Assembly: GCA_012522835.1 (NCBI GenBank)
Contig: JAAYJR010000538.1
Location: 1 to 51,963, forward strand
Length of the DNA: 51,963 nt
Direction of reading: 5' to 3'
DNA from: Bacteroidales bacterium
GTDB taxonomy: Bacteria > Bacteroidota > Bacteroidia > Bacteroidales > Prolixibacteraceae
The notes under the pieces are model-generated. The model did no database searches and was not told where the DNA came from. It saw only the letters and a program-made list of their open reading frames with translations. Below, piece after piece: positions 1,879 to 49,973 of this stretch (its first letter is position 1; each line of letters opens with the position of its first letter). The position numbers were made by a program, and so were the translations under genes.

Positions 1879-1919
1879 AGTCAATTAATTATCTGTCCTT
1901 CACTAAGGACAATTGACTT
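1878..1919. terminator. Compound hairpin at the junction of two convergent genes; candidate bidirectional terminator
   Basis: AAGTCAATT (1878-1886) pairs with AATTGACTT (1911-1919). An inner stem GTCCTT-CACT-AAGGAC lies at 1895-1910. The structure starts at the last base of the kinase stop codon and lies inside the 3' end of the ABC ATPase CDS. Confidence 0.3.
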
Positions 1920-2531
1920 TGTGGCATATTTGGCTGCCGCTCCGGGATTGTGAGATACCAGGATCACTGCTTTGCCGCCCTTATGAAATTCCCCTATAAG
2001 TGACAGTATTACCTCACTGTTAACAGGGTCAAGGTTACCGGTAGGTTCATCGGCGAGTAAAATATCGGGACTGGTAATTATTGCACGAATAAATGCTGTT
2101 CTCTGTTTTTCACCTACGCTCAGTTCTGAAGGATATTTATTTTCTAATGGAAGAATTGAACACTTCTCCATATACTCATTTATTTTTCTTCTGTTTACCG
2201 GCTTCGGACAAACCATTTTAATATTCTCAAAAACAGTTAAATATGGAAGAAGATGAAACTGCTGAAATACAAATCCTACATTCCTCTTGCGATATAACTC
2301 CAATTCTTTGCCGGTAAATAAATTTATATTCTTCCCTTTAAATAATACCTGTCCGGAATCAGGACGGATCAATCCGCCAATTGTATGCAGCAGTGTCGAT
2401 TTCCCGCTGCCACTGGGACCGTTAACAACAATAAAATCACCTTCATCAACCTTGAAAGAAACCTCATTAAGAGCTGTAAATATGTTATTATTCTTTGTAT
2501 ACTTCTTGGTTAATTTAACAATATCCAACAT
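1881..2531 (-). CDS. ABC transporter ATP-binding protein, MacB/LolD-type
   Basis: Walker A GPSGSGKSTLL, ABC signature LSVGEKQRTAFIRAI, Walker B ILLADEPTGNLD, H-loop VSHN. ATG start. Sits downstream of an FtsX permease gene. Confidence 0.9.
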   Translation of the reverse strand: MLDIVKLTKKYTKNNNIFTALNEVSFKVDEGDFIVVNGPSGSGKSTLLHTIGGLIRPDSGQVLFKGKNINLFTGKELELYRKRNVGFVFQQFHLLPYLTVFENIKMVCPKPVNRRKINEYMEKCSILPLENKYPSELSVGEKQRTAFIRAIITSPDILLADEPTGNLDPVNSEVILSLIGEFHKGGKAVILVSHNPGAAAKYATKSIVLSEGQIIN

Positions 2532-2602
2532 TGCAGAATTTTTAATTTATTAAGCAGAAAATTTATTAAAGATTTTATGTTGATCACTGTAGATATTTTA
2601 GT

Positions 2603-3769
2603 TCATTCTGAGCTCAGGGTCCTGGCAGCATCTACCTGGGTAGCCATTAAAGCGGGGATCCAGCCTGAAAGTGTCCACAAAACAGGAAATATAAAAATGA
2701 CATAACCCAATACATTCCAAAGCGGTTCAATATCCTGAGCTGTAAACCTGAAAATCTCTCTTCCGAAATACTCTGCTATTGCGGTTCCTGCAAAAAAGCC
2801 TATAATGGTCCCTGCAAGTCCAAGTAAAAATGCTTTCATCATAATTATAAGCAAAATATAATATTTACTCTTACCTGTTGCTATCATTATCCCAATCTCC
2901 CGGCGACGCGTAACTACATTAGAATAAAACAGAAGTCCGGATATCAATAATGCAGAAAGAATTACGAAAGGGATAATGAATGAACCATATTTATTCATCA
3001 TCAACCTCTGGTTCTCACGTGCATCTGCGATACTTCCAATCTCAGCAACCTCAAGGTCAGAGAATATAGCCTGAACCTGGCTTCTGGCATTTTTAATCCT
3101 TCCGTCGTGGCAGACACACCCCAGAGCTTCAATCTTATTAATCTGACCCTCCATTCCCAGGACCTGCTGAAGGTCTTCAAGATAGAATGCCACTCCCTGA
3201 TCCAGCATTCCTTTTCCCTCCTCTAACCTCTTGGTAATTGGAAATTCATATATTTTCCCATTCTTTCCCCTGATTTTGAACAGATCTCCTTCAGGGATAT
3301 TTGTTGAAATCAGAGAACCTACATGAACAGTTCCTTTAGGAACATCAAATCCCATAGTCTCCTGTCCCGGCAGATACCGCTGAACTGCTTCATCCTTATA
3401 GCCGGCTACAAGTATCTGATGTCGTGATCCGTTAGGGTCGGTCCAGTCAGGATATTTAAGCTGCAAAATACCAGTAAGGTGTCTGACTGCATCAAATGTT
3501 TTGGATTCTGCCAGAACATCAACATAATTTTCAGGAAACACAGGTGTATTGTTGACAGAATAAAAATCTATCAGGTTTGTGCCTTTTGGGTAAATATAGA
3601 GGTTAAGTCCCTGTTCTCTCATTATTTTGCGGGTTTCATTCTCACTGGCCCTGCTTAGGGAATATATTGCTACAGAAACAGTACCTGCTACAATAACTGT
3701 CAGTAAAATAATGAAGGAATTCACCTTCCGGTAAAATATCTCTTTTATTACCAGTATTACGGCGTTCAT
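2603..3769 (-). CDS. ABC transporter permease, FtsX/MacB family (4 TM segments with a large extracytoplasmic domain)
   Basis: N-terminal TM, then roughly 220 aa of soluble domain, then three C-terminal TMs. FtsX-type motif RRREIGIMIATGKS...AFLLGLAGTIIGFFAG. C-terminal PALMATQVDAARTL. Confidence 0.85.
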   Translation of the reverse strand: MNAVILVIKEIFYRKVNSFIILLTVIVAGTVSVAIYSLSRASENETRKIMREQGLNLYIYPKGTNLIDFYSVNNTPVFPENYVDVLAESKTFDAVRHLTGILQLKYPDWTDPNGSRHQILVAGYKDEAVQRYLPGQETMGFDVPKGTVHVGSLISTNIPEGDLFKIRGKNGKIYEFPITKRLEEGKGMLDQGVAFYLEDLQQVLGMEGQINKIEALGCVCHDGRIKNARSQVQAIFSDLEVAEIGSIADARENQRLMMNKYGSFIIPFVILSALLISGLLFYSNVVTRRREIGIMIATGKSKYYILLIIMMKAFLLGLAGTIIGFFAGTAIAEYFGREIFRFTAQDIEPLWNVLGYVIFIFPVLWTLSGWIPALMATQVDAARTLSSE

Positions 3770-3770
3770 A

Positions 3771-3992
3771 TTACAATCTTTTTTTATTCCGGTAAAAAAA
3801 ATAAACAGTTAACACCACCACAGTAATAACAATAATAATTCCTGTAATGACAATAGAAATCTGCAGAGAGTTATCATCTTTCATCTCAAACACTTCCGGT
3901 TGATATGTGTTGAGCCCGTCCCTCTGGTCAGTGAGCCATTTAGGCAATGGCCGTGTACTAAGTGAATCATATATTGCAGAATCCTGGTTCAT
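3771..3992 (-). CDS. Small single-pass membrane protein (73 aa), unknown function
   Basis: ATG start immediately follows the stop of the upstream gene. Its own stop lies 1 nt before the permease ATG. C-terminal hydrophobic helix ISIVITGIIIVITVVVLTVYFFY is followed by RNKKRL. I recognise no family. Confidence 0.55.
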   Translation of the reverse strand: MNQDSAIYDSLSTRPLPKWLTDQRDGLNTYQPEVFEMKDDNSLQISIVITGIIIVITVVVLTVYFFYRNKKRL

Positions 3993-4781
3993 CTATCTGT
4001 GTAATAGAGAAGGATTGGCATCCAGAATAACATTGACAAGGGCAGGTGAAGGTCTTTCCCAGTCAGCCTTACAAAGGATACTTACTCCCGGGAGGTTATC
4101 CTTTATGAGACAGCTGCAATCAGCTGTAAGAAAATCAATCAACAATTTAATATTATCTTCTGTTATGCCTCTTCCCAAAAGCGGTTCAAGCGCCCTGAAC
4201 CTTCCGAAAACCCCGAACAGCATTGGCTCATCTATCTCTTTAAGGTCACTTTCAACATTAAGCAGCAGCGAGACAAGATGCTTTTCGGTCGTGCTGCCCC
4301 TGTCTATTTCAATCAAAGTGATTATTTCACTGAATGGGGAGGAATCAAGACTTTTCTTTATTACCTGCAAACCCTGATTATCTTTTTCACTGTTTCCACT
4401 TTTCAGATATAGCATAACACAAAGTTTTCCAGCCAAAAGCTCTTCGACAACCTTATCTCTCACCGGGGAGGTATTGATGCTTTTAACTGAGCTGGAATCA
4501 TCATATTCACCAAAAAGCCTGTTGCCATAGTATAACGCATAATAAGGGTCACTAACAGCTTGCTTAACCTCTGATTTAAATACTATATTTGTTGTTTCCG
4601 ACCATCTTTCCAGCTCCTTATGTTGGGTTACTACTTCCGTAGCCTGATCACCTTTATGATAATAAACCAGCCTGTACTTATCAGCAAATGAATTCAGTAA
4701 TACCCACTCAGAAACTTTAGTGGTGCATGCCATACTTATGATAGCTGCAATTAATAATGTTTTCAGGTAAACAGGCTTCAT
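3993..4781 (-). CDS. Uncharacterised lipoprotein (262 aa) with a C-terminal CSC motif
   Basis: Signal peptide with a lipobox-like IISMAC. Conserved-looking C-terminal block EPMLFGVFGRFRALEPLLGRGITEDNIKLLIDFLTADCSCLIKDNLPGVSILCKADWE. I cannot assign a characterised family from memory. Confidence 0.6.
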   Translation of the reverse strand: MKPVYLKTLLIAAIISMACTTKVSEWVLLNSFADKYRLVYYHKGDQATEVVTQHKELERWSETTNIVFKSEVKQAVSDPYYALYYGNRLFGEYDDSSSVKSINTSPVRDKVVEELLAGKLCVMLYLKSGNSEKDNQGLQVIKKSLDSSPFSEIITLIEIDRGSTTEKHLVSLLLNVESDLKEIDEPMLFGVFGRFRALEPLLGRGITEDNIKLLIDFLTADCSCLIKDNLPGVSILCKADWERPSPALVNVILDANPSLLHR

Positions 4782-4787
4782 GTTTAA

Positions 4788-7700
4788 TTATTTTTGTGAT
4801 AAATTTTCCTGAACCAGTTCAATTCCGCATATCAGGGTCTTACCTGCCCGCGGGATTAACTCAACCTTAATACTGCTGCCGGCTTTTATACCATGAAACG
4901 ATTTAACAATCTCCTTATCCGGCTTACCGGCCTCCTTTACAATATCAAATTCTTCAGCCACAATTTCTCCCTGTATTTTTATATCAAACATCCTTTCTCC
5001 CTGCTTTTTATCCTCCAGCTCAGAGAAATAGAGCCTCACAGTATACGACGATTCAGGAATATTATTGTCATCAGCCAACCCAATTTCAAAATTTTTAATT
5101 CCTACAAGAGCGCTTGAGCTGATCCAGGGAGTATTTTCAGATATTATAGAAAATGGCTCTTTCCTGATCTTAAGAATATCGATTGTATCAATAGTAACGG
5201 GAATTTCCGGCGGTGCTCCTGAAACATAAGGAAACTCGAACCACAAGACATTATCATCCGAACTTCTGTCGCCCGGCGCATTGAAATTCAGTCCCAGCTG
5301 TTTTACCGGGTTACCGTTCCATTTATAATTACTGTTTGTCCAGTAAGACATCCACGGCATATTTATAAGAGCCAGCGATGTCTGGTTCTGGTAAGCACAC
5401 TGACAAGTCCTGGTATAGTCGGGAGAATTCAATACACCATCGGCAACTATCAGGTTGGTTGAGCAGCCGGGCTTCCAGCCACCCAGACTTCCTGTCCCTT
5501 CAAAAGCTTCAAGGTTAATAAAACCTGCTGAAGCTGACCTGAAGGTGAGAAGGTACTCGCTTGCAGCCACATAACCGCAGCCATATTCACGCTTATAACT
5601 CCATTTCAGATCTTCGCCGGTTACCGGATCTCTCTCTGTAAGAGGCTCCCCTGTTAAAAGGTGGAATCCTTCTCCACTGGTATATATTTTGTCGTTATGT
5701 ATTATCGGCGGATTACCATATTTAACGGCTTTATCCCATATTTTCTCCTTAGTTACTGCATTATATGCTATCATTCTGTTACCCTCCTCACCGTTCAGCA
5801 TATCCCGTGAAGGCCTTGTTGCCTGCAAAAGCAGCTTATGTTCAGAAGAATACCCAAGCCAAGTCCCGAATATATCATCAGTCTTTTCATATAATTTTTC
5901 ACCTGTTCTTATATCGAGATAAACCAACCTCGATCCTTCAGGAAGGGGTTCTCCCCTCCTTCTCAGTTTTGTTTCAAGGTATTGCGGAAGTTTATCAAGG
6001 CAATACAGAACATCGTCTCCTGCTATCACTGAATTGTGTAAAAATCCGTGATTGGCATTGGTGCTCCATAACCTCTTTCCTGTAAAACGATCCAAAACTA
6101 TCAGTTCTCTGCTGGCAGTGAGATCGTAGTTAGTAAATTTTGGATTTTTGATTCTTATAGAATCATTTTCAAGTCCTGTAAATTCTGAAAAATTATTTCC
6201 CAGGATCAGCAGATCTTCATAAACTCCGATATATCCCAGCTCCTTTGTGTTGTCAGACCCTGTATCAAAGACTTTTACCGTCTCACCGTTTGTTATATCG
6301 ATTAAGCTGCATTTATTGCCCTCTATCAGATAGACAAACTCTTTTGTTGCAATAAAATTTGTTCCCCTTGCATTTGCTCCCGGAAGATGTACCTGGTTAT
6401 ACTTTGGATCGAGCGGATTCTCTTCATCATAAGTCTCATCATAAAATACCAGCCAGTTATCCTCTTTTAGTTGTTCCGATTCTCTTTTCCACAGAACCCT
6501 TCCTGTATATACATCACGGGCACTAATGCAATCTACTCCCTGAATGATCAGTCTTCCATCTATTACCTGTTCACCGGGTCCGTGTCCATGTCTGGGTAAT
6601 ACATCCAGGTTGGAATTCCCGCCAAACCATAAAATTCCAAGTGGCGCTTTTACCAGTTTATCATCTGACTTGACCGTGTTGGCAATATCTCCGTAGTTAT
6701 GGGTCCATGGAGAAGCGCCAGGAAGGGAGCCTTCTTTTATTAACATGGGTAATCCACTTTCCCTTACTGTAACGCCCTGAATATTAAGTGCAATAAAATT
6801 TTCAATTATCCTGTCTCTTTCCGAACCTCTGAAACCCAACACAATTTTTCCGCCATAAGGGCGTGTTATTTCATATATCTGTTCAAGGAGGTCATCATCA
6901 TTATAGTTAATATAAAAAGGATCATTTATAATAGTGAGGTTTGAGATATATTTTGGCAATGCCGGAAATTGATCTTTGTACTGAAGAAAACTAATACGTT
7001 CGGCTATGATTCCCGCCTCATCATAATATTCACGAAGGGAGTTAACTCTCCCTTTATCCTTTTCATAAACAATAATATTAAGGTCAGTACCCGAAAGCAA
7101 ACCATTCAGCAACTTTGTGTCCTCTCCGCCGAATACCAGGCAGTATCCTTCAGACACCCCTGACTGCCGGATTATTTTCCGGGCTTTCGAAGACCCCCTT
7201 TTCAGTCCCGTCTTATCTTTGCCTAATCTGGTAATCTCTTGTACCGGAGTATCACCAAATGTCATTATATCCCCATTTTCCGTTACAGCAATAAGCTTTC
7301 CGTTTGCTGCAACAAGCCGTTCAATCTTCACATCAGAATCAAAACTCCATATAACTTCAGGCACTTTACCAGGAGTAATCCTTACTGCTGTAATCCCCTC
7401 CCTACCGCCGGCATAAAGACAATCACCGGCTTTTATAAGGTCGCCTGATGCATCTGCATTAATACTCCACAATGAATCGAGAGTCTTATCGTCGTTCAGT
7501 CTCGATGCCCTAATTTTATTTCCTGAGAAATAGATATTATTTCCGTCAATAACAGGATACTCTCCGGCATCTTTAGTAAGTCTCTCACCCGTTTCCGCAT
7601 CATACATCCAGGTCTCTCTCCATCTGTGATGGTTAAAAAACACCTTATCGTTCGCACAAGTAAAAGCACCTCCTGTCTTCCCGCTGGCAGCAAGTCTGTA

Positions 7701-8495
7701 ATAAATTTTCTCTCCTGATTTTTTATCAAATGCTGCAGGAACAGAACGGCCTCCGGCAACTAGTAATTTATCACCGCTGATAGTGAAAGTACCCTGTGGC
7801 GCCACATCTGCAAATGCCGGAGAGTTATGAGGCTGTAATATATAATTACTTCCGGTACCTTCATTTTTCCAGATGATATCCCCGGTTTCAGCATCCAGCG
7901 CATAAATAAAAGTCCCCATAAGCGGAAAGATGCTTGCAGCAGTATAAATGATATCGTCTTCAAGTACTATACCTCCCCTTGCGGGCCACATTGAGATCAG
8001 TCGTTTATTGCCAAGAAGTTTATTTTCTGCAGGAGCCAGAAACCTTTTCCATATAATTGAACCGTCTGATGTATTAAGGCAATAGCAGTAACCGTCATCT
8101 CCTGTAAACACTATTTTGCCGTTATAAATTGTGAGTGGCAGCCTTACAGGGCCGTCAGCATAAAAATGCCATATCTCTTTGCCTGTATTAATATCCATAG
8201 CCACGACCTTATCCTGATCGTTGAACCCGACAAAAATTTTATTATCTGCCACAACAGGCTCCAGTATCCTGTCGAATTGCATTAAGTTCCGGTTAAGGGG
8301 ATCATCCCAAACGGGTATTCTTACAGAAAATTTTGCCTGCCACTGAAGGTAAAGTTCATCAGCCAGTTTTCCGGATGTGGAAGCTGACCTGTTTTTATCA
8401 TAACGCCACATTGGCCAGTCATTACCAGCCTTTAATGGATGATAACTGTTCAGAAAAAATATTATCCATAAAAAAATAAATATTTTCAGCTTCAT
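4788..8495 (-). CDS. Giant secreted protein: two PQQ/BamB-like beta-propellers, a central Rossmann/methyltransferase-like insert and a C-terminal malectin-like domain
   Basis: The track ORF starts at a TTG (8519). I prefer the ATG at 8495, which gives MKLKIFIFLWIIFFLNS as a signal peptide. WPMWRYDKNRS plus repeated propeller-blade patterns (G..IW.., DG..Y.LD..TG). Central GYCLVFGGEDTKLL...IIVYEKD. C-terminus YTVRLYFSELEDKKQGERMFDIKIQGE is malectin-like. Confidence 0.7.
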   Translation of the reverse strand: MKLKIFIFLWIIFFLNSYHPLKAGNDWPMWRYDKNRSASTSGKLADELYLQWQAKFSVRIPVWDDPLNRNLMQFDRILEPVVADNKIFVGFNDQDKVVAMDINTGKEIWHFYADGPVRLPLTIYNGKIVFTGDDGYCYCLNTSDGSIIWKRFLAPAENKLLGNKRLISMWPARGGIVLEDDIIYTAASIFPLMGTFIYALDAETGDIIWKNEGTGSNYILQPHNSPAFADVAPQGTFTISGDKLLVAGGRSVPAAFDKKSGEKIYYRLAASGKTGGAFTCANDKVFFNHHRWRETWMYDAETGERLTKDAGEYPVIDGNNIYFSGNKIRASRLNDDKTLDSLWSINADASGDLIKAGDCLYAGGREGITAVRITPGKVPEVIWSFDSDVKIERLVAANGKLIAVTENGDIMTFGDTPVQEITRLGKDKTGLKRGSSKARKIIRQSGVSEGYCLVFGGEDTKLLNGLLSGTDLNIIVYEKDKGRVNSLREYYDEAGIIAERISFLQYKDQFPALPKYISNLTIINDPFYINYNDDDLLEQIYEITRPYGGKIVLGFRGSERDRIIENFIALNIQGVTVRESGLPMLIKEGSLPGASPWTHNYGDIANTVKSDDKLVKAPLGILWFGGNSNLDVLPRHGHGPGEQVIDGRLIIQGVDCISARDVYTGRVLWKRESEQLKEDNWLVFYDETYDEENPLDPKYNQVHLPGANARGTNFIATKEFVYLIEGNKCSLIDITNGETVKVFDTGSDNTKELGYIGVYEDLLILGNNFSEFTGLENDSIRIKNPKFTNYDLTASRELIVLDRFTGKRLWSTNANHGFLHNSVIAGDDVLYCLDKLPQYLETKLRRRGEPLPEGSRLVYLDIRTGEKLYEKTDDIFGTWLGYSSEHKLLLQATRPSRDMLNGEEGNRMIAYNAVTKEKIWDKAVKYGNPPIIHNDKIYTSGEGFHLLTGEPLTERDPVTGEDLKWSYKREYGCGYVAASEYLLTFRSASAGFINLEAFEGTGSLGGWKPGCSTNLIVADGVLNSPDYTRTCQCAYQNQTSLALINMPWMSYWTNSNYKWNGNPVKQLGLNFNAPGDRSSDDNVLWFEFPYVSGAPPEIPVTIDTIDILKIRKEPFSIISENTPWISSSALVGIKNFEIGLADDNNIPESSYTVRLYFSELEDKKQGERMFDIKIQGEIVAEEFDIVKEAGKPDKEIVKSFHGIKAGSSIKVELIPRAGKTLICGIELVQENLSQK

Positions 8496-8523
8496 GACAA
8501 ATAAATTAGAATTCCGCAATCAG

Positions 8524-9978
8524 TTACTTTATACTAACAGTATATTTTTGAAGTTCAGTTTTAAGTTCTGACAATTTTTCACGGGATGAATGGTCATTAA
8601 TAATATTTTTCAATTCATAAGGATCCGACTTCAGGTCATACATCTCATCCATACCTTCGAGATCCGTGTAATGTATATATTTAAACCTTTGGGTCCTAAC
8701 GGCTTTATAACCCATATTTCTAACTCTGGGAAATACAATATCACTATAGTATTCAATCAGGAATGAAGTACGCCAGCTATCCGGTTTTATACCTTTAAGC
8801 AACGGCACCAGGCTGCAGCCATCCATTTCAGGCCGGGAATCAATTCCTGCCAGCTCTATAACTGTAGGGGCCAGGTCTGTTCCAAGTACCATTTCATCAA
8901 TAACACCCCCAGGTTTAATTATTTTCGGGTATTGAATAAGCAGGGGTATCCTGGCGGACTCTTCATATGCCAGTCTTCTTTCAACGCTAAGGCCATGTTC
9001 TCCATACCAGTATCCCTCATCACTGGTAAAAATGAACACTGTATTTTCAAGATGCCCTGTTTCTTCAATGGCAGTCATGATATCACCTATCCCCTCGTCC
9101 ACTGCAACAAGCATTCTCTGACGGCCTCTTATGGTTTCATCAGAGGATCCTGTTTCAGGCCCCAAAGGGGGCAGGTCATCAATTTTCCTTTGCAGAGCAG
9201 GTTTACCCGACAGATCATCATAATAATTAAGCCGTCTGGGTATCGGATCATTTTTGTACCAGTCATTATGCCTTTCGGCAGGCATAAACTTAGATGCTGA
9301 AGGATCAGAGATAGTTCCGTCATCAAACTGCACTGTTTCCGGATGCAGTGCTTTATGAGCTAAGTAAAGGCAGAAAGGTTTTTCGTGCTTTTTTCTGATG
9401 AAGTTAACTGCCTTTTCGTTCAATATATCTGTTGTATAGCCTGTATACTGTTTCCTTATCCCATTTTCATTAATTTCGGGATCAAATGATGTACCCTGGC
9501 CTTTCAGGCTAATCCAGTGGTCAAATCCAGGCCTTGCGGTGTCATCATTGCCCATGTGCCATTTGCCAATAAATGCTGTTTCGTAACCCGAGTCATGGAG
9601 CAGCCAGGGAAAGGTAACTAGTCTGTGGCTTTGGTCACTGCGGTCTGTATTATCAATAATCCCATGATTATGTGCATACTGCCCTGTTAAAATAGAAGCA
9701 CGGCTAGGTGAACACAAGGGGGTGGTAACAAAAGCATTCCTGAACCTTACACCCTTACAGGCAATCTTATCAATATTTATGGTCTTTGCGAAAGGATGGC
9801 CCATATAGCCTAACTCATCCCACCTGAGATCATCAACCACCACCATAACAACATTAGGATGCCCGGTTCCGGTAACAGGGCATCCTGAAATCTTGTCAAC
9901 AACCGGAGATGTAATAATTAACCCGCTTAATAAGCCGATGAACTTGCTAACAGAAGGTATTTGAATTATTCTATTCAC
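8524..9978 (-). CDS. Sulfatase (S1 family), N-acetylglucosamine-6-sulfatase-like
   Basis: Formylglycine signature PLCSPSRASILTGQYAHNHG (C-x-P-x-R), which resembles GNS-type GlcNAc-6-sulfatases. VVMVVVDDLRWDE metal-site region. Signal peptide with a possible lipobox ISGC. Only a GTG start is available. Confidence 0.85.
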   Translation of the reverse strand: MNRIIQIPSVSKFIGLLSGLIITSPVVDKISGCPVTGTGHPNVVMVVVDDLRWDELGYMGHPFAKTINIDKIACKGVRFRNAFVTTPLCSPSRASILTGQYAHNHGIIDNTDRSDQSHRLVTFPWLLHDSGYETAFIGKWHMGNDDTARPGFDHWISLKGQGTSFDPEINENGIRKQYTGYTTDILNEKAVNFIRKKHEKPFCLYLAHKALHPETVQFDDGTISDPSASKFMPAERHNDWYKNDPIPRRLNYYDDLSGKPALQRKIDDLPPLGPETGSSDETIRGRQRMLVAVDEGIGDIMTAIEETGHLENTVFIFTSDEGYWYGEHGLSVERRLAYEESARIPLLIQYPKIIKPGGVIDEMVLGTDLAPTVIELAGIDSRPEMDGCSLVPLLKGIKPDSWRTSFLIEYYSDIVFPRVRNMGYKAVRTQRFKYIHYTDLEGMDEMYDLKSDPYELKNIINDHSSREKLSELKTELQKYTVSIK

Positions 9979-10017: not shown

Positions 10018-10785
10018 CTAAATCAGCGATGCTGAGGCTTTGTCAAGGAAAAGTACTGTGTCGGGATGTTTGCGTAAAATAGTTGCCGGACATGCAGTGG
10101 AAATTTCCTGGTTCAATGTGTTATAGACAGCTTGTGCTTTTCTTTCGTCGGGTACAACACAACTAATTGTTTTGCAATTCATAATTGCAGTGATTGTAAG
10201 TGAAAGAGCGTGAGTAGGAACGTCATCAAAAGTCGGGAACCAGCCTTCACCGAGTTGCTGTGTGCGACAATCATCATCAAGTTCTACAACTTTAACAAGA
10301 TGAGGGTCATTAAAATCTGCTACCGGAGGATCATTAAATGCTATATGGCCATTCTCTCCAATTCCAATGCATGCAACATCAACCGGATGACTTTTTAACA
10401 AATCCTCATAACGTTTAATTTCAGCATCGATATCAGCGGCATCCCCTTCAAGATAATGCACCTCTTTTGGTTTAACAATATCAAGAATTCTCTCTTTCAA
10501 ATATTTACGAAAACTTGCCGGATGAGTTTCAGGCAATCCTTTATATTCATCAAGATGAAAAACTGTAATTTTTTTCCAGTCAACGTCCAGTTTCTGAAAA
10601 TTCTGGATAAATGCATATTGTGATGCACCGGTAGCCAGTATCAAATTTGCCGAACCTTTCTCAGCAATAACTGCTTTTAACTGATCTGCCACAAAATTGG
10701 CAGCAGCTATACCCATTTCCTCTGTTTCGTTATAAACTTTTACTTTAAGATTATCCTTTTTAAAAGATTTAATTTCTTGTACCAT
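10018..10785 (-). CDS. nagB: Glucosamine-6-phosphate deaminase
   Basis: LILATGASQ and GIGENGHIAFNDPP motifs of the NagB/6-phosphogluconolactonase fold. 255 aa, no signal peptide. Confidence 0.8.
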   Translation of the reverse strand: MVQEIKSFKKDNLKVKVYNETEEMGIAAANFVADQLKAVIAEKGSANLILATGASQYAFIQNFQKLDVDWKKITVFHLDEYKGLPETHPASFRKYLKERILDIVKPKEVHYLEGDAADIDAEIKRYEDLLKSHPVDVACIGIGENGHIAFNDPPVADFNDPHLVKVVELDDDCRTQQLGEGWFPTFDDVPTHALSLTITAIMNCKTISCVVPDERKAQAVYNTLNQEISTACPATILRKHPDTVLFLDKASASLI

Positions 10786-10816: not shown

Positions 10817-12058
10817 TTACATAAATAGCTCACTTATAGCAAAATAGGTTGTCAGGAATGAAAAAAACACAACTGCCCAGATTCCAATATTTTCACGCGT
10901 CCCTGCTTTATTCATTCCCATAAGGTTTGACCTGTTGATAAGTATAAGGATCGGAATGGCAACGGCAGGCAGAATACAAGCCTGAAATGCCTGTGAAAAT
11001 ACCATAAGGGCAGGAGGCCGCTGTTTTAGGAAAACTGATCCAAATGCAAATAACATAGCAAATAAAATCAGTAACTTCGATTGCGTAGAGTGTATATTTC
11101 TCGGCTTACCCGAATAGTCAGAAATCAGCCATGGAGCAATCAACACAATAGGAAAAATAGTTGATAGTCCGGCCCCCACTATACCAAGAATAAGGATAAA
11201 AGCTGCTGCCTTTCCTCCTATCGGCTGAAAAAGCTGAATCATTTCAACAGTATTTTCCAGTTTTAATCCCATAATATGAAGAGTACCTGCAGCCACAGCC
11301 ATTATAACCCCACTTAACAGGAGCATCATAGTTGCAGAAACGAATGCATCCTTTTTTTCATCTTTCAGGTTTTTTATGGTCCAGCCCTTTTCAGCCACAA
11401 CCGTACTTCGCATAATGAAGACCGCAGCTGAACAAGTAGTCCCTGCAATTGCTGCAACCAATCCGAAAGCTCCTTTTGTGTCAGGAATTCCGGGGATCAG
11501 CCCACTGGCAATTGATGAAAAATCGGGTTTAACCATAAAAAATACTATGATAAAAGAGAGCCCCATAAAAATAACGAAAACAGTCAATACTTTTTCAAAT
11601 GTTTTGTATTGTCCAACCCATAACAGTATATACATAGCAACTGCCAAAACAAGTATTATCCAGAACCGTGGAATCATCGTCTCATTAAACAGCAGCCTGA
11701 TAGCCTCCTGCACCAGGTCAGCGACAATTCCCATTACACCCATAAGTGCAAGCAGCTCTCCAATTATCAGGGCAATAAGAATATATAACGCTAAAATCCA
11801 GCCGTGTTTAAATTCATTTTTTATATTAAACAGGGCAGTATTCCCGGTCACCAGTGTTACCTTACCATAGGCAACCATCAGTACGAAGGTAAATATACAC
11901 GATAGTACAAGTGCCCAAAAAAGTTCCATCCCGTGCTCGGCTCCTACTTTGGCCATTGTAGTAACACTGCCTGTACCAATGTTATATCCTATCAGGAAAA
12001 GGCCGGGTCCCACTGCTGCAAGAGAAATCAGTATTTTCTTGATTAAACTGTTTTTCAT
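10817..12058 (-). CDS. NRAMP-family-like transporter lacking the canonical metal-binding motifs
   Basis: About 11 TMs. N-terminal AAVGPGLFLIGYNIGTGS and MELFWALVLS resemble NRAMP TM1/TM2. The track start at 12091 is a TTG; I prefer the ATG at 12058 (MKNSLIKK). Confidence 0.6.
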   Translation of the reverse strand: MKNSLIKKILISLAAVGPGLFLIGYNIGTGSVTTMAKVGAEHGMELFWALVLSCIFTFVLMVAYGKVTLVTGNTALFNIKNEFKHGWILALYILIALIIGELLALMGVMGIVADLVQEAIRLLFNETMIPRFWIILVLAVAMYILLWVGQYKTFEKVLTVFVIFMGLSFIIVFFMVKPDFSSIASGLIPGIPDTKGAFGLVAAIAGTTCSAAVFIMRSTVVAEKGWTIKNLKDEKKDAFVSATMMLLLSGVIMAVAAGTLHIMGLKLENTVEMIQLFQPIGGKAAAFILILGIVGAGLSTIFPIVLIAPWLISDYSGKPRNIHSTQSKLLILFAMLFAFGSVFLKQRPPALMVFSQAFQACILPAVAIPILILINRSNLMGMNKAGTRENIGIWAVVFFSFLTTYFAISELFM

Positions 12059-12184
12059 ATGATTAGAAATATTTATTTTAAAAAGTTGCAAATTTAACTC
12101 GCATATGTTATAATCACACCCCCGGGTCCTGACTTTAATCGGGATGTTAGTTTCATATGACTCGAATATAACTTAATTCATTAA

Positions 12185-13429
12185 TTATTTAGCCTGATAA
12201 ACTAACACACCATTCACAAAGGTTTTCTTTATATTAACCTTATAATCATCAAGAGTGAACAATATCAGGTCAGCCCGCCTGCCGGGCAATAACTCTCCAC
12301 GATCATCCAGTCCGTATAATTTAGAAGGATTGGTACTGGCCATTTGCACTGCCTCCGCCAGGGAGCAGCCTGTTACCTTCATAACATGCCCTACTCCTTT
12401 AGTAATAGGAGATGCTGAACCATAAAGTACATTCTGGGCAGGATAGCGCAGCATTCCTTCTTTGGTTAATTCAATTGTTTCGCCCGTTTCTGTTTTATAT
12501 TCCCCCGGTTCAAGGGCTGCGTAGCTGGTTACGTCGGATGTAATTATTGTATTATTAACTCCTTTAACTTTATAAAAAACCCTGATCTCCTCGGGCAGAA
12601 GATGAAAACTGTCGCAGATAATGCTGATCATATACCTGTCGTCCGACAGCTGTGACCAAAAAGGATTATTATGCCTGTTGATCATATTTGCCGCACCATT
12701 TCCAAGATGTGTTGCTATCTTTGCACCTCTGCTGATTGCGGCTTCTACAGTAGCAGCCGGAGCGTTATGGTGTCCAAGGGCAACAACTATTCCTTTATTG
12801 CTGCAGTTAGTAATAAAATCGAGCCCCCCCTCCATTTCCGGAGCTACAGTAACCTGCATAATCTTTCCATCAGCTGCTTCATACATTTTCATAAACTCAT
12901 TCCAGTCGGGAAGTTTTACATACCTCTTTGGATGAGCCCCGCGATAACCATCTTCGGGATTTATATAGGGCCCTTCAAGATGAAATCCGGGTATCGACCC
13001 CAGCAACTTTTTATTATCAACTGCTTTAGCAAGAATAGAAAAATTTCTGATCAGCACATCCATGCTGTTAGTGGTTAAAGTGGGCAAATAGGTAGTAACA
13101 CCGAATTTCCAGAGTTCACTAGTGGCTTTTTCTACTCCCTCGCTGTCTAGATCACTGTCACCAAAGGCAAACGAAATACCCGCAAAGCCGTTTACCTGGT
13201 TATCGAAGAAACCTGGTGAAATATAAACCGGATCTTTGCCGGCAGGCTGATCAGTTTCTTTTATATCGATAATTTTTCCATTATCAATTGTAACTTCCAC
13301 CGGATTTCCGGTATAATAATGTATTCCACTGACTACTTGTTGAGCATTTATTAAACCTGCCATTATAAGCAAAAAACAGGTAAAAAGTGACCTTATTATA
13401 ACTCCATAATATATCTTATTTTTATTCAT
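12185..13429 (-). CDS. nagA: N-acetylglucosamine-6-phosphate deacetylase-like amidohydrolase with an N-terminal signal peptide
   Basis: SPGFFDNQVNGFAG, HLEGPYI, GHHNA and THLGNG motifs of NagA. A 31-aa N-terminal extension MNKNKIYYGVIIRSLFTCFLLIMAGLINA/QQ looks like a Sec signal. Confidence 0.75.
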   Translation of the reverse strand: MNKNKIYYGVIIRSLFTCFLLIMAGLINAQQVVSGIHYYTGNPVEVTIDNGKIIDIKETDQPAGKDPVYISPGFFDNQVNGFAGISFAFGDSDLDSEGVEKATSELWKFGVTTYLPTLTTNSMDVLIRNFSILAKAVDNKKLLGSIPGFHLEGPYINPEDGYRGAHPKRYVKLPDWNEFMKMYEAADGKIMQVTVAPEMEGGLDFITNCSNKGIVVALGHHNAPAATVEAAISRGAKIATHLGNGAANMINRHNNPFWSQLSDDRYMISIICDSFHLLPEEIRVFYKVKGVNNTIITSDVTSYAALEPGEYKTETGETIELTKEGMLRYPAQNVLYGSASPITKGVGHVMKVTGCSLAEAVQMASTNPSKLYGLDDRGELLPGRRADLILFTLDDYKVNIKKTFVNGVLVYQAK

Positions 13430-47548: not shown

Positions 47549-47556
47549 TAGTTTTG
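47549..47556 (+). promoter_or_regulatory. Candidate -7 promoter box (TAnnTTTG) abutting the receptor start codon
   Basis: TAGTTTTG ends 6 nt before the ATG at 47562. Confidence 0.25.
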
Positions 47557-47561
47557 TGCTG

Positions 47562-49973
47562 ATGAAGAGATTTATTGCCTTATACATACTTATTTCACTG
47601 TTAAATTTCTCACTCTACTCCCAGAGTAATAATGCTACACTCAGAGGTATTGTCAGGGATCAGGCGGGCAATCCTGTAGACCTGGTTAATATAGGCTTAC
47701 AGAATTACTCCATTGGCACCAGCTCAAACAGGGATGGTAAGTTCCTGCTTCGTATTCCTGCAGGTAAAGAGATAATCATCATTTTCCGGTCACTTGGTTA
47801 TGAGACAGTATCAGATACTGTCAATGCTGCCAGTGAAGAAGATATACTGCTTGAAGTAACCATGAAAACAGCAGACATCCATCTGTCTGAAATTACAGTC
47901 ACTGAAATACAAAAAAATTCAGGTAATGTAAAACGTATAGATCCTAAATTTTTAAATGTATTACCCGATGCTGCCTCCGGAGGAGTCGAGACACTGATAA
48001 AAACGCTTCCGGGGGTATCCTCCAATAATGAGCTTAGCTCACAATATACAGTCCGCGGTGGTAATTTCGATGAAAATATGGTTTATGTAAATGATATTGA
48101 GATTTACAGGCCTTTTCTGGTAAGAGCAGGACAACAGGAGGGATTGAGCTTCATTAACAGCGATCTTGTATCGACAATTGATTTTTCTGCAGGTGGATTT
48201 GATGCAAGGTATGGTGATAAGATGTCGTCAGTTCTGGATATAAAATACAGAAGGCCCAGTGTTTTCAGGGGATCGGCCTCAATGAGCCTGCTCGGGGCAA
48301 CTGCTCATTTCGAAGATGTGGCATTGAAGGGGAAGCTGGCACATATTACCGGAATTCGTTATAAAACAAACAGATATATGCTGGGCGGATTGGATGAGAA
48401 GGGGGAATACAATCCTAATTTTATTGATATTCAAACATATATAACCTACCGGCTTTCAGATAAATTTGACGTTTCTTTTCTGGGTAATATTGCCCGGAAC
48501 AAATATCAGTTTGTACCTCAAACCCGTTCAACAACTTTTGGAACATGGGACACGCCCATGAATACAACGATCTATTTTAACGGCCAGGAGGTTGACAATT
48601 TTAAAACTACCCTTGGTGCTCTGTCTGCTAACTATCACCCGAATATTGACCTGAACCTTAAATTCATAGCGTCAGCATTTATAACCACTGAACAAGAGAC
48701 CTATGATATCATGGGACAATATTACCTGAATCAGCTTGAACGGGATATGTCGACCGAAGAATTCGGAGACAGTATTCTTAACCTTGGTGTCGGAACATTT
48801 TTAAACCATGCAAGAAACCATCTTGAGGCAACAGTATACAATTTTTCTCACAGAGGCGCTTTCAATTCAGAAAACCACCTTGTTAACTGGGGATTCAAAT
48901 TACAGCACGAGTCAATCGAAGATAAAATAAACGAATGGGTTTACCGCGATTCTACTGGCTATTCCATCCCTTACTCCGACTCTGAAGTGCTTCTGTATTA
49001 TACCCTGAAAAGCAAAAATCAAATAAACTCAAACCGTATAACAGGCTTTATCCAGGATACCTGGAGTTTACCCGTAAGTACCGGTAGTTTTTATGCGACA
49101 GGGGGAATCCGGTTTAATTACTGGGATTTCAATGATGAACTTCTGGTAAGTCCAAGGATATCATTTAGTTACTTTCCCGAATGGAAAGAAAAAATTTCCT
49201 TCAGCCTTTCTGGTGGCATGTACCACCAGTCTCCATTTTTCAAAGAGTTAAAAAAGCGTGACGGCACTATAAACTACGACATTCAAGCCCAGCGCTCGTA
49301 CCAGGTAGTTTTGGGAAGCGACTATATCCTGACAGCATGGAACAGGCCGTTCCGGTTTACTGCTGAAGCATATTATAAATGGATGAACCACCTGATACCT
49401 TATAATATTGACAATGTGAGAATCCGTTATATTTCCGAACAGGAAGCTGCCGGTTATGCAGCCGGGATTGACCTTAACATTAATGGTGAATTTGTAAGTG
49501 GCGTACAATCATGGGCCAGCCTCTCACTAATGCAGACTAAAGAGGATATCAAGGGCGACGGATATGGATATATCCCCCGCCCTACCGACCAGTGGTTGAA
49601 TTTCAGCCTTTTCTTTCAGGATTATTTTCCGGGCAACCCCTCATACAAAATGCAGCTTTCAGGATTTTACGGGTCACGGCTTCCCACAGGACCTCCCTAT
49701 TCAGAAAGATACCAGAATGTTTTCAGAATGCCCTCTTACCGGCGAATCGACCTTGGTTTATCAAAAATAATTATAAGTCCTGCCAATAAATCAGATCTCA
49801 GGCTTGCACGACATATTAATGATATGTGGCTCAGCCTGGAAGTTTTTAACTTGCTAAATATCAACAATACAATCTCGTATTTTTGGGTATCAAGTATTTA
49901 TGGTGACCAGTTTGCAGTACCCAACTATCTGACTAACAGAAAATTGAATCTTAAATTAACTATTAAATTTTAG
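47562..49973 (+). CDS. TonB-dependent receptor with an N-terminal carboxypeptidase-regulatory-like domain
   Basis: ATLRGIVRDQAGNPVDLVNIGL (CarboxypepD_reg). Plug VRGGNFDENMVYVNDIEIY. C-terminal barrel ends in KLTIKF. The track start at 47556 is a GTG; I prefer the ATG at 47562. No SusD-like gene follows. Confidence 0.8.
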   Translation: MKRFIALYILISLLNFSLYSQSNNATLRGIVRDQAGNPVDLVNIGLQNYSIGTSSNRDGKFLLRIPAGKEIIIIFRSLGYETVSDTVNAASEEDILLEVTMKTADIHLSEITVTEIQKNSGNVKRIDPKFLNVLPDAASGGVETLIKTLPGVSSNNELSSQYTVRGGNFDENMVYVNDIEIYRPFLVRAGQQEGLSFINSDLVSTIDFSAGGFDARYGDKMSSVLDIKYRRPSVFRGSASMSLLGATAHFEDVALKGKLAHITGIRYKTNRYMLGGLDEKGEYNPNFIDIQTYITYRLSDKFDVSFLGNIARNKYQFVPQTRSTTFGTWDTPMNTTIYFNGQEVDNFKTTLGALSANYHPNIDLNLKFIASAFITTEQETYDIMGQYYLNQLERDMSTEEFGDSILNLGVGTFLNHARNHLEATVYNFSHRGAFNSENHLVNWGFKLQHESIEDKINEWVYRDSTGYSIPYSDSEVLLYYTLKSKNQINSNRITGFIQDTWSLPVSTGSFYATGGIRFNYWDFNDELLVSPRISFSYFPEWKEKISFSLSGGMYHQSPFFKELKKRDGTINYDIQAQRSYQVVLGSDYILTAWNRPFRFTAEAYYKWMNHLIPYNIDNVRIRYISEQEAAGYAAGIDLNINGEFVSGVQSWASLSLMQTKEDIKGDGYGYIPRPTDQWLNFSLFFQDYFPGNPSYKMQLSGFYGSRLPTGPPYSERYQNVFRMPSYRRIDLGLSKIIISPANKSDLRLARHINDMWLSLEVFNLLNINNTISYFWVSSIYGDQFAVPNYLTNRKLNLKLTIKF

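Follow-up and report, generated by a model that had tools for sequence, protein, structure and literature searches.

A stretch of 51,963 nucleotides (nt) from a Bacteroidales bacterium of the family Prolixibacteraceae (assembly GCA_012522835.1, contig JAAYJR010000538.1; hereafter, the window) carries on its minus strand five adjoining genes that apparently form a real, conserved and undescribed functional unit. Their products are an ATP-binding cassette (ABC) ATPase and an FtsX-type permease, a 73-amino-acid (aa) single-pass membrane protein, a 262-aa secreted protein with two thioredoxin-like domains, and a giant protein that combines propeller and malectin domains. The ATPase and permease, to judge by their architecture a type VII ABC system, are the known part of this cassette, and the accessory proteins and their client are undescribed: full-text searches found no such gene set in the literature they covered, in agreement with a first-pass annotation of the window, to which no described system of this composition was known. 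On the basis of the cysteine motifs, conservation and gene linkage laid out below, we tentatively propose, with rather less than even confidence, that the five proteins make up an ATP-powered periplasmic thiol relay for a thiophilic cargo, likely a metal or a metal-derived species.

A five-gene cassette in Bacteroidales

The genes lie nearly end to end on the minus strand, running from the ABC ATPase (216 aa; 1881-2531) through the FtsX-type permease (388 aa; 2603-3769), the 73-aa protein (3771-3992) and the 262-aa protein (3993-4781) to the propeller protein, whose gene spans 4788-8519 with a TTG start or 4788-8495 with an ATG start. The ATG start (8495) is supported by a 100%-identical database protein of 1,235 aa (P0406). 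Next on the same strand comes an S1-family sulfatase gene (484 aa; 8524-9978), and the intergenic gaps from the ABC gene to the sulfatase gene measure 71, 1, 0, 6 and either 4 or 28 nt, the last depending on whether the propeller starts at TTG or ATG. These positions and gaps match exactly those of the first-pass annotation, which had described six closely packed genes, and Pfam and NCBIfam searches bore out its domain calls (ABC_tran, FtsX, PQQ_2 with Malectin, and Sulfatase with SGSH_C). The 262-aa and 73-aa proteins returned zero Pfam, NCBIfam, PDB-sequence and PADLOC matches, and Pfam scans of the neighbourhood genes revealed none of the components that had been noted as missing, namely a membrane-fusion protein (MFP), TolC and a substrate-binding protein (SBP). 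A terminator scan of the window found no convincing minus-strand terminator between these genes; the promoter and terminator scans were otherwise uninformative. Tight gene packing by itself is commonplace in bacteria, and the grouping is considered more than chance because the five-gene order is conserved among related loci.

This conservation emerged from a genome scan with the 262-aa protein, which revealed 90 stretches among 185,579 species representatives, of which 79 loci were kept. All of these were Bacteroidales, with titles naming Prolixibacteraceae, Mariniphaga, Draconibacterium, Maribellus and 'Rikenellaceae' metagenome-assembled genomes (MAGs), bar one locus (L069) with a full Bacteroidales-type cassette on a contig labelled as a Chloroflexota MAG, which is probably mis-binned. 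By tblastn, every sufficiently long locus held the genes for the propeller, the 262-aa protein, the 73-aa protein, FtsX and the ABC ATPase in this order and on one strand, and clustering of open reading frames (ORFs) reproduced the same order. The permease was the best-conserved cassette protein (66-88% over full-length matches), the ABC gene was kept downstream of it, and the 73-aa protein was present in 74 of the related loci with a strongly conserved N-terminal segment.

The sulfatase does not share in this conservation. Its assignment is secure in itself, with a PF00884 match (E 4e-53), an SGSH_C domain and the C-S-P-S-R active-site motif readable in the translation ('LCSPSRAS'), but outside the window its gene was found ahead of the propeller in a single locus of the 79, that of the closest relative (L073). 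L004 and L005, with 262-aa proteins that share 78% and 73% identity with that of the window, have no sulfatase, and their nagB adjoins the propeller gene directly; the remaining Bacteroidales loci have unrelated genes upstream of the propeller. Compared between the window and L073 on one side and L004 and L005 on the other, the sulfatase looks as if it had been gained or lost in particular lineages at the site between nagB and the propeller. Synteny thus rejects the sulfatase as a system member, and of the six-gene unit first described the strictly syntenic five stand: the real unit is five genes, not six.

The same comparison bears on the earlier suggestion of a pump whose task would be to handle or install either the propeller protein or a product of sulfated glycans, as one unit with a GlcNAc-6-sulfatase-like (N-acetylglucosamine-6-sulfatase-like) enzyme. 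The 28-nt gap between sulfatase and propeller, the upstream sulfatase, nagB, nagA and GFO genes, and the malectin domain of the propeller would all fit such a role within the window. Against it stand the single sulfatase-bearing locus among the 79, the nagB gene directly upstream of the propeller in the next-closest relatives, and the absence of any fixed position for the sulfatases found near seven of the distant loci described below. Because the sulfatase is absent outside the window and L073 among the Bacteroidales loci, a sulfated-glycan product has no comparative support, and we regard this explanation, already largely refuted by comparative genomics, as very improbable.

Invariant cysteines in the engine and its partners

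The ATPase of the engine falls in the LolD/FtsE/MacB (type VII) clade, with a PF00005 match (E 2.6e-32) and the Walker A (GPSGSGKST), signature (LSVGEKQR) and Walker B (ILLADEP) motifs in its translation. Its top NCBIfam matches were FtsE and LolD, both under cut-off, and its best PDB sequences were the pneumococcal MacB-like 5xu1, LolD, FtsE, BceA and YtrE. The permease matched PF02687 (E 1.6e-11, 44.8 bits against a cut-off of 25.5), and hydropathy placed transmembrane (TM) segments at residues ~21-39, 268-286, 305-323 and 350-368, with a periplasmic domain at ~40-267, a loop of ~228 aa. The TM domain is marginally similar to solved YtrF, MacB and FtsX chains, and the MacB_PCD domain (PF12704) gave no match in the window permease and a weak one (E 3.7e-4) in the homologue from distant locus L084. 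Curated equivalog models for both engine proteins all scored far under their cut-offs (NCBIfam), and it is by architecture that we class the pair as a type VII ABC system. When the permease was aligned with 18 distant-locus homologues of 25-31% identity, only 32 positions were invariant, and these included Cys218 and Cys220, which form a Cys218-x-Cys220 motif ('A-L-x-C-x-C'; codons 3110-3118) in the periplasmic domain.

A second invariant Cys-x-Cys (CxC) motif lies in the 262-aa protein, which has 662 close homologues, nearly all of ~262 aa, 56-78% identical and all annotated as 'hypothetical'. Its AlphaFold2 model (pLDDT, the predicted local distance difference test score, of 77) revealed two tandem thioredoxin-like domains, each a beta-alpha-beta-alpha-beta-beta-alpha unit, for which the top Foldseek matches were the b-b' domains of the protein disulfide isomerase (PDI) family, ERp27 and calsequestrin. 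Foldseek probabilities reached 1.00 to PDILT, ERp27 and PDI bb' at a sequence identity of 9-19% to PDI-family structures, and a phmmer search against PDB sequences gave no match. The catalytic CxxC expected at the start of helix 1 is found nowhere in the sequence. The protein has instead the cysteines C19, C222, C224 and C239, plus C122, which varies within the family. C19 is invariant and stands as the first mature residue, in 'CTTKVSEW' after the signal peptide (codon 4725-4727), and C222 and C224 belong to an invariant tail, D-C222-S-C224-L-I-K-D (codons 4110-4118), whose family form is A-D-C-S-C-x-I-K-D-x-L-P-G. Both the Cys-bearing N-terminus and the tail are low-confidence, presumably flexible parts of the model. 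The protein is a double thioredoxin fold and did not prove to be an MFP or LolA/LolB-like, an outcome that would have counted against the first-pass reading.

A profile search with the 262-aa protein over 1.84 billion cluster representatives placed it in a large unnamed superfamily: clustered at 50% identity, its relatives number 2,557, and 1,948 of these have an E value below 1e-10. The named distant members come from Planctomycetota, Verrucomicrobiota and Armatimonadota (Gemmataceae, Planctomycetaceae, Symmachiella dynata, Verrucomicrobiales and Armatimonadetes). The distant proteins, of 300-550 aa, have a signal peptide, a C-x-x-P-V-[YF]-x-[YW] motif, two thioredoxin-like domains and a C-[ST]-C-x-[IV]-K motif, and continue in the same polypeptide through a low-complexity linker into a C-terminal TM helix with a basic tail. 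An hhalign comparison of the 262-aa group with the distant family gave a probability of 100% (E 4e-55) over a region from the N-terminal Cys to beyond the C-S-C, and both cysteine motifs (the N-terminal Cys and C-[ST]-C-x-[IV]-K) were present in 351 of 372 full-length members. In the distant family the Cys is preceded directly by A, position -3 holds A or V, and the residues at -2 (W, S, Q or R) are described as bulky or charged; this signal-peptide site points to signal peptidase I and hence to a free N-terminal Cys. In Bacteroidales the site reads S-[LM]-A-C, which is compatible both with the PROSITE lipobox and with the -3/-1 rule of signal peptidase I. The word 'lipoprotein' in the first-pass label ('orphan lipoprotein') is therefore doubtful.

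The 73-aa protein would supply what the shorter Bacteroidales form lacks relative to these longer proteins. It consists of a conserved periplasmic segment of 45 residues (RPLPKWLTDQRDGLN..MKED), one hydrophobic segment that forms a TM helix at ~45-63, and a Lys/Arg-rich cytoplasmic tail. As this topology equals that of the C-terminal anchor of the long distant proteins, the 73-aa protein probably corresponds to this anchor on a chain of its own, such that it and the 262-aa protein would represent a split of the single-chain form. The parallel is one of architecture; by eye, the 73-aa sequence shows no similarity to the linker and anchor regions of the distant proteins. One member of the 73-aa family carries the JGI label 'heme/copper-type cytochrome/quinol oxidase subunit 2', which is almost certainly spurious and derived from the single TM helix.

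The third CxC motif lies in the propeller protein, which is ordered as a signal peptide, an 8-bladed PQQ_2/BamB-like propeller, a Rossmann domain, a second propeller-like region and a malectin domain. Alignment with 14 distant-locus homologues (15 sequences in all) revealed 131 invariant positions, among them the cysteines C981, C1019 and C1039-Q-C1041 (the last two in T-C-Q-C; all four within codons 5397-5579) and an R643-H644 pair in a highly conserved 'LPRHGHGP' segment. An AlphaFold2 model of residues 30-1110 was confident for the first propeller and the Rossmann-type domain. The two most conserved segments, residues 600-719 and 974-1087, were those modelled worst, whereas less conserved parts were modelled well. 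The pLDDT in those segments, which are rich in Cys and His, was below 35.

The Rossmann domain is class-I methyltransferase-like, with weak Methyltransf_25 matches in the distant-locus homologues. The model and these matches support the fold, but as the usual glycine-rich and NPPY-type motifs are not conserved, we do not propose that the domain is a catalytic methyltransferase. Fold and profile searches with the propeller (Foldseek, PDB) returned generic 8-bladed matches to BamB, pyrroloquinoline quinone (PQQ) dehydrogenases and tetrathionate hydrolase, and the specific models scored far lower than their cut-offs (PQQ_enz_alc_DH, 40 bits against 480; BamB TIGR03300, 56 against 285), so that the protein shares with PQQ dehydrogenases and BamB only the generic 8-bladed fold. 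A propeller homologue of 1,695 aa in locus L090 (11208-16295) has PAS domains before the malectin domain, which is unusual for a secreted protein.

Linked uptake genes and the proposed thiol relay

Beyond the Bacteroidales loci we compared 82 distant loci, comprising two contig look-ups (L083, L084) and 80 loci from a metagenome scan; the metagenome-scan loci carry no taxon names, and the phylum names used here come from named family proteins. In these loci the genes for the thioredoxin-like protein with its C-S-C motif (Trx-CSC), FtsX, the ABC ATPase and full-length propeller homologues cluster again. On a Verrucomicrobiales MAG contig (L084), Trx-CSC is followed in order by FtsX, ABC, an 81-aa ORF and a PQQ_2 propeller. 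The gene order on L083, a metagenome contig of 5 Mb, starts likewise with Trx-CSC, FtsX and ABC and goes on with a ModA-like double SBP, a ModB-like permease, an ABC protein, a MoaD-like protein and a MoeB-like protein. Of the 57 distant loci with enough sequence, 38 have FtsX immediately downstream of Trx, and homologues of the ~1,230-aa propeller were found by clustering in 36 distant loci, full length, at 30-45% identity over ~1,240 aa and with the same layout (PQQ_2, weak Methyltransf_25, PQQ_2, Malectin). Two other candidates from these loci were dropped: a 687-aa gene upstream in the planctomycete locus L083 shows no similarity to the propeller, and an apparent Trx-FtsX fusion in L138 (986-aa ORF) is an out-of-frame ORF-calling artefact in high-GC DNA.

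Eighteen distant loci are well flanked, with 6 kb or more upstream and 8 kb or more downstream. Among these, FtsX was present in 10, the MacB-type ABC gene in 9 and the giant propeller in 10. Components of a ModABC-like molybdate/tungstate importer and a MoaD/MoeB sulfur-carrier pair recurred as well, with ModA and ModB in 8, MoeB in 8, MoaD in 6 and a ModC/WtpC-like ATPase also in this company (ModB, ModC, MoaD and MoeB range from 6 to 8). Gene order varies among the distant loci, with the propeller before or after the others and the Mod genes on either strand, and some Trx genes adjoin ModABC without FtsX (L102, L115, L144); these varied arrangements argue against simple inherited synteny. 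The double SBP scored above the cut-off of the modA model and its closest PDB sequences are all ModA, on which grounds we set aside a reading as a sulfate or thiosulfate importer. A further tie is the 643-aa protein P0202, in which a ModA-like (SBP_bac_11) domain is inserted between the Trx-CSC module and the C-terminal TM anchor, the only such fusion seen among 10 distant proteins scanned with Pfam. In Bacteroidales the recurring uptake component is a different one, a 739-aa TonB-dependent receptor with CarboxypepD_reg and Plug domains, which occurs in 41 loci and immediately adjoins the cassette in 36 of these 41. Of the 36 loci that have 3 kb or more of flanking sequence on each side, 26 carry it.

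Taken as a relay, the cassette would work as follows. The cytoplasmic ATPase would drive shape changes in the periplasmic domain of the permease by mechanotransmission, with no transport across the bilayer, and the CxC-bearing domain would act together with the double-thioredoxin protein, which would offer three invariant thiols in its first mature residue and its C-S-C tail. In other phyla this partner would be tethered by its own C-terminal TM helix, and in Bacteroidales the 262-aa protein may be held at the membrane by the 73-aa protein, by lipidation, or by both. The client or partner would be the giant double-propeller/malectin protein with its own C-x-C and two further cysteines, and the matching thiol sites would serve as a ligand-exchange relay that moves cargo between the propeller and the membrane complex, ATP hydrolysis giving directionality to the flow. 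Shared donor and acceptor motifs of this kind are typical of metallochaperone hand-offs, as between Atx1 and its target ATPases or CCS and SOD1. We place such a relay in trace-element acquisition or cofactor maturation because of the TonB receptor, the linkage to ModABC, MoaD and MoeB, and the ModA fusion. Molybdenum or tungsten is the sole candidate element to which any genomic evidence points, and the Bacteroidales loci provide none of it.

Several observations weigh against a thiol relay. Both the relay function and metal binding are predictions, redox activity or the binding of structural zinc can also account for CxC motifs, and to our knowledge MacB-type systems have so far been exporters or mechanical actuators and never metal relays. 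In the poorly modelled Cys/His-rich segments of the propeller, the four cysteines may form disulfides rather than a cluster. The propeller's malectin domain would fit a glycan-related role, as would the amino-sugar genes (nagA, nagB, GFO) near some loci. The linkage evidence is also uneven: Mod, MoaD and MoeB genes are absent within 10 kb of the cassette in the window and in every Bacteroidales locus, and no TonB receptor is adjacent to the cassette in the window, where the only TonB-type gene (805 aa; 47556-49973) lies 40 kb away and resembles the 739-aa receptor in its N-terminal domain alone. Regulation adds little, as Rfam revealed no known riboswitch or other RNA in the window and 14 loci, and of 46 loci searched for a Fur/Zur-type operator, only 4 had good Fur-box-like 7-1-7 matches ahead of the propeller. 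The frequency of these matches is roughly tenfold over background, but they fall in AT-rich intergenic DNA and are a weak lead. In two of the loci (L020, L035) a near-consensus sequence of this type (TGATAATCATTTTCA) lies ~118 nt upstream of the propeller ORF, within the divergent intergenic region between the TonB receptor and the propeller, and weaker ones occur in L039 and L082.

A different view, which we consider possible though unlikely, is that the engine is an FtsEX-type actuator that moves no cargo and instead switches, positions or releases a propeller/malectin protein that binds or cleaves glycans. The thioredoxin-fold protein would then be an adaptor, like EnvC for FtsEX or TesA for YbbAP, and the cysteines would be structural (zinc or disulfide) or a redox switch. 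Control of periplasmic partners is what type VII ABC systems typically do (FtsEX-EnvC, LolCDE-LolA, YbbAP-TesA; PMC12646458, PMC11491553), the propeller keeps strict synteny with the cassette and has a carbohydrate-binding malectin domain, the closest structural likeness of the Trx domains is to the b-b' domains with which PDI binds substrate without catalysis, and amino-sugar genes lie within 10 kb in ~12 Bacteroidales loci as well as in the window. An actuator leaves unexplained why three different proteins share an invariant CxC motif across phyla, and why TonB receptor and ModABC/MoaD/MoeB genes recur nearby and a ModA-like domain is fused in one case, together with the distant Trx genes that stand beside ModABC without any FtsX.

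Thiol chemistry could also serve detoxification. Here a MacB-like exporter would remove thiol-reactive toxic species, such as Cu(I), As(III), Hg, Cd or a metal chelate, from the periplasm or outer leaflet, and Trx-CSC would stand in for the MFP, as a scavenger or adaptor in the periplasm. Three-thiol sites are classical for soft metals and metalloids (ArsR, ArsD, CCS), MacB-family systems are mostly exporters, and the ATPase is closest to the nucleotide-binding domains (NBDs) of MacB-like proteins, LolD and BceA. A split MacB system, PA4064/PA4065, has moreover been proposed to export a cobalt-pyochelin complex (PMC11481552). We nevertheless judge efflux improbable here: no MFP or outer-membrane factor recurs in ~160 loci, the recurring partners are uptake components (TonB receptor, ModABC) rather than resistance genes, and the 1,235-aa propeller, the most faithful partner, has no obvious role in efflux.

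A more specific version of the thiol relay, which we offer as a long shot, would make the cassette the core of a previously unrecognised route by which a thiophilic trace element, with molybdenum or tungsten as candidates, is handled outside the cytoplasm. The propeller would capture or convert a form that cannot be transported directly, and the FtsX engine would pass the element from thiol to thiol, through the double-thioredoxin protein, either to uptake machinery or to the propeller as a cofactor. Uptake would proceed through ModA and ModBC where these are adjacent and by TonB-dependent entry in Bacteroidales. If true, this would be the first type VII ABC system to act as a metal relay and a candidate answer to how anaerobes obtain molybdenum when molybdate is scarce (compare PMC11484787).

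Relation to described systems and neighbouring genes

The cassette shares with type VII ABC systems (MacAB-TolC, LolCDE-LolA, FtsEX-EnvC, YbbAP-TesA) the FtsX topology of TM1, a large periplasmic domain and TM2-4, and a separate LolD/FtsE-like ATPase. Such systems act on periplasmic partners, and mechanotransmission to a partner of this kind would be expected here as well (PMC12646458). It differs from them in having no MFP, TolC, LolA or EnvC-type partner, and in a periplasmic domain that bears an invariant CxC and, in the window permease, has no sequence match to MacB_PCD; the double thioredoxin-fold Cys protein, the mini-TM protein and the giant propeller are undescribed for the superfamily. 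Individual systems can be set apart further. Compared with MacAB-TolC, the NBD and the permease are separate genes 71 nt apart rather than fused, and neither an HlyD/MFP nor an outer-membrane efflux protein (OEP) domain was found in Pfam scans of the window genes or among the annotated neighbour families of the related loci. Compared with LolCDE, there is one permease gene instead of two paralogues, with scores of 24 bits against a cut-off of 362 for lolCE and 176 against 308 for LolD. Compared with FtsEX, the scores were 178 bits against 265 for FtsE and at most 23 against 225-250 for the FtsX models, and the partners are thioredoxin-fold and propeller proteins, not the coiled-coil EnvC/PcsB type.

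Two metal-related systems come closer in logic or layout. In the first, the lipoprotein copper chaperone NosL works with the ABC complex NosDFY to bring copper into the propeller enzyme NosZ (PMC8457098, PMC6530538), which resembles the cassette in combining an ABC ATPase and permease with a membrane-tethered periplasmic chaperone and a propeller client in the same cluster. Cargo is handed on in the periplasm by ligand exchange in the Nos system (PMC8457098, PMC6530538), a step that for the cassette is proposed only. The differences are substantial, as NosY is an ABC-2-type permease rather than an FtsX, the cassette has no NosD beta-helix protein, the 262-aa protein matches neither the NosD nor the NosL family, and the client neither resembles NosZ nor possesses a His-rich CuZ site. 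We thus see the Nos parallel as an analogy of logic, not homology. In the second, the Zur-regulated split MacB system PA4063-PA4066 of P. aeruginosa, NBD and FtsX are likewise separate genes, accompanied by two small accessory envelope proteins, with no MFP or TolC encoded alongside, and the system is tied to trace-metal homeostasis (PMC11481552). This likeness is one of gene layout and the link to metals, and PA4063-PA4066 has no giant propeller and its proposed role is cobalt-pyochelin export.

The first-pass annotation had likened the cassette to B. subtilis YknWXYZ, which also has four components including an FtsX permease and an ABC ATPase. In that system YknX is an MFP and YknW a multi-pass Yip1-type protein. 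The cassette has neither, its accessory proteins being a 262-aa thioredoxin fold and a 73-aa single-pass protein, such that the resemblance holds for the component count of four and fails for a Ykn-type MFP. The 262-aa protein, finally, recalls PDI b-b' in its tandem thioredoxin folds without CxxC and CCS in its flexible C-terminal CxC tail, which in domain 3 of CCS delivers copper to SOD1. It is distinguished from both by being bacterial and extracytoplasmic, by its invariant Cys as first mature residue and by its pairing with an ABC engine.

The number of type VII ABC systems is small, and every one of them has brought a new process of the envelope to light, be it efflux, lipoprotein sorting, control of cell-wall hydrolases in division or lipid extraction. 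The cassette described here is widespread, with named members of its thioredoxin-fold component in Bacteroidota, Planctomycetota, Verrucomicrobiota and Armatimonadota, and currently hides behind generic database names ('BamB family' or 'PQQ-binding-like' for the propeller, 'hypothetical protein' for both small proteins, and 'FtsX-like permease'). It offers a testable signature in three proteins with an invariant CxC, a giant secreted client and uptake-gene partners, and cultured hosts are available (Mariniphaga sediminis, Draconibacterium aestuarii, Maribellus comscasis and Symmachiella dynata). If the relay is true, mechanotransmission would extend to metal or cofactor trafficking, and the very large family of "BamB-like/PQQ-like" giant propellers would gain a function.

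The genes around the cassette yielded some further observations. In the window, an Nramp-family transporter gene (10817-12091) lies between nagB (10018-10785) and a nagA-like amidohydrolase gene (12185-13429); it is 90-95% identical in L004, L005 and L073, and a metal-transporter family is an odd presence within an amino-sugar cluster. Directly downstream of the ABC gene in L003, L020, L030, L035, L046 and others stand HdrC/HdrB-like Fe-S/CCG genes, noteworthy for their thiol/disulfide chemistry and followed by purL. This set is confined to 17 loci of one Bacteroidales subclade, and with its fixed order ending in purL we judged it to be lineage synteny and did not retain the HdrBC-like proteins as partners. 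In seven loci (L011, L024, L040, L050, L055, L065, L066) the TonB receptor and cassette are neighboured by genes for a Bacteroidetes-type extracytoplasmic function (ECF) sigma factor and a FecR-like anti-sigma protein, which suggests trans-envelope signalling.

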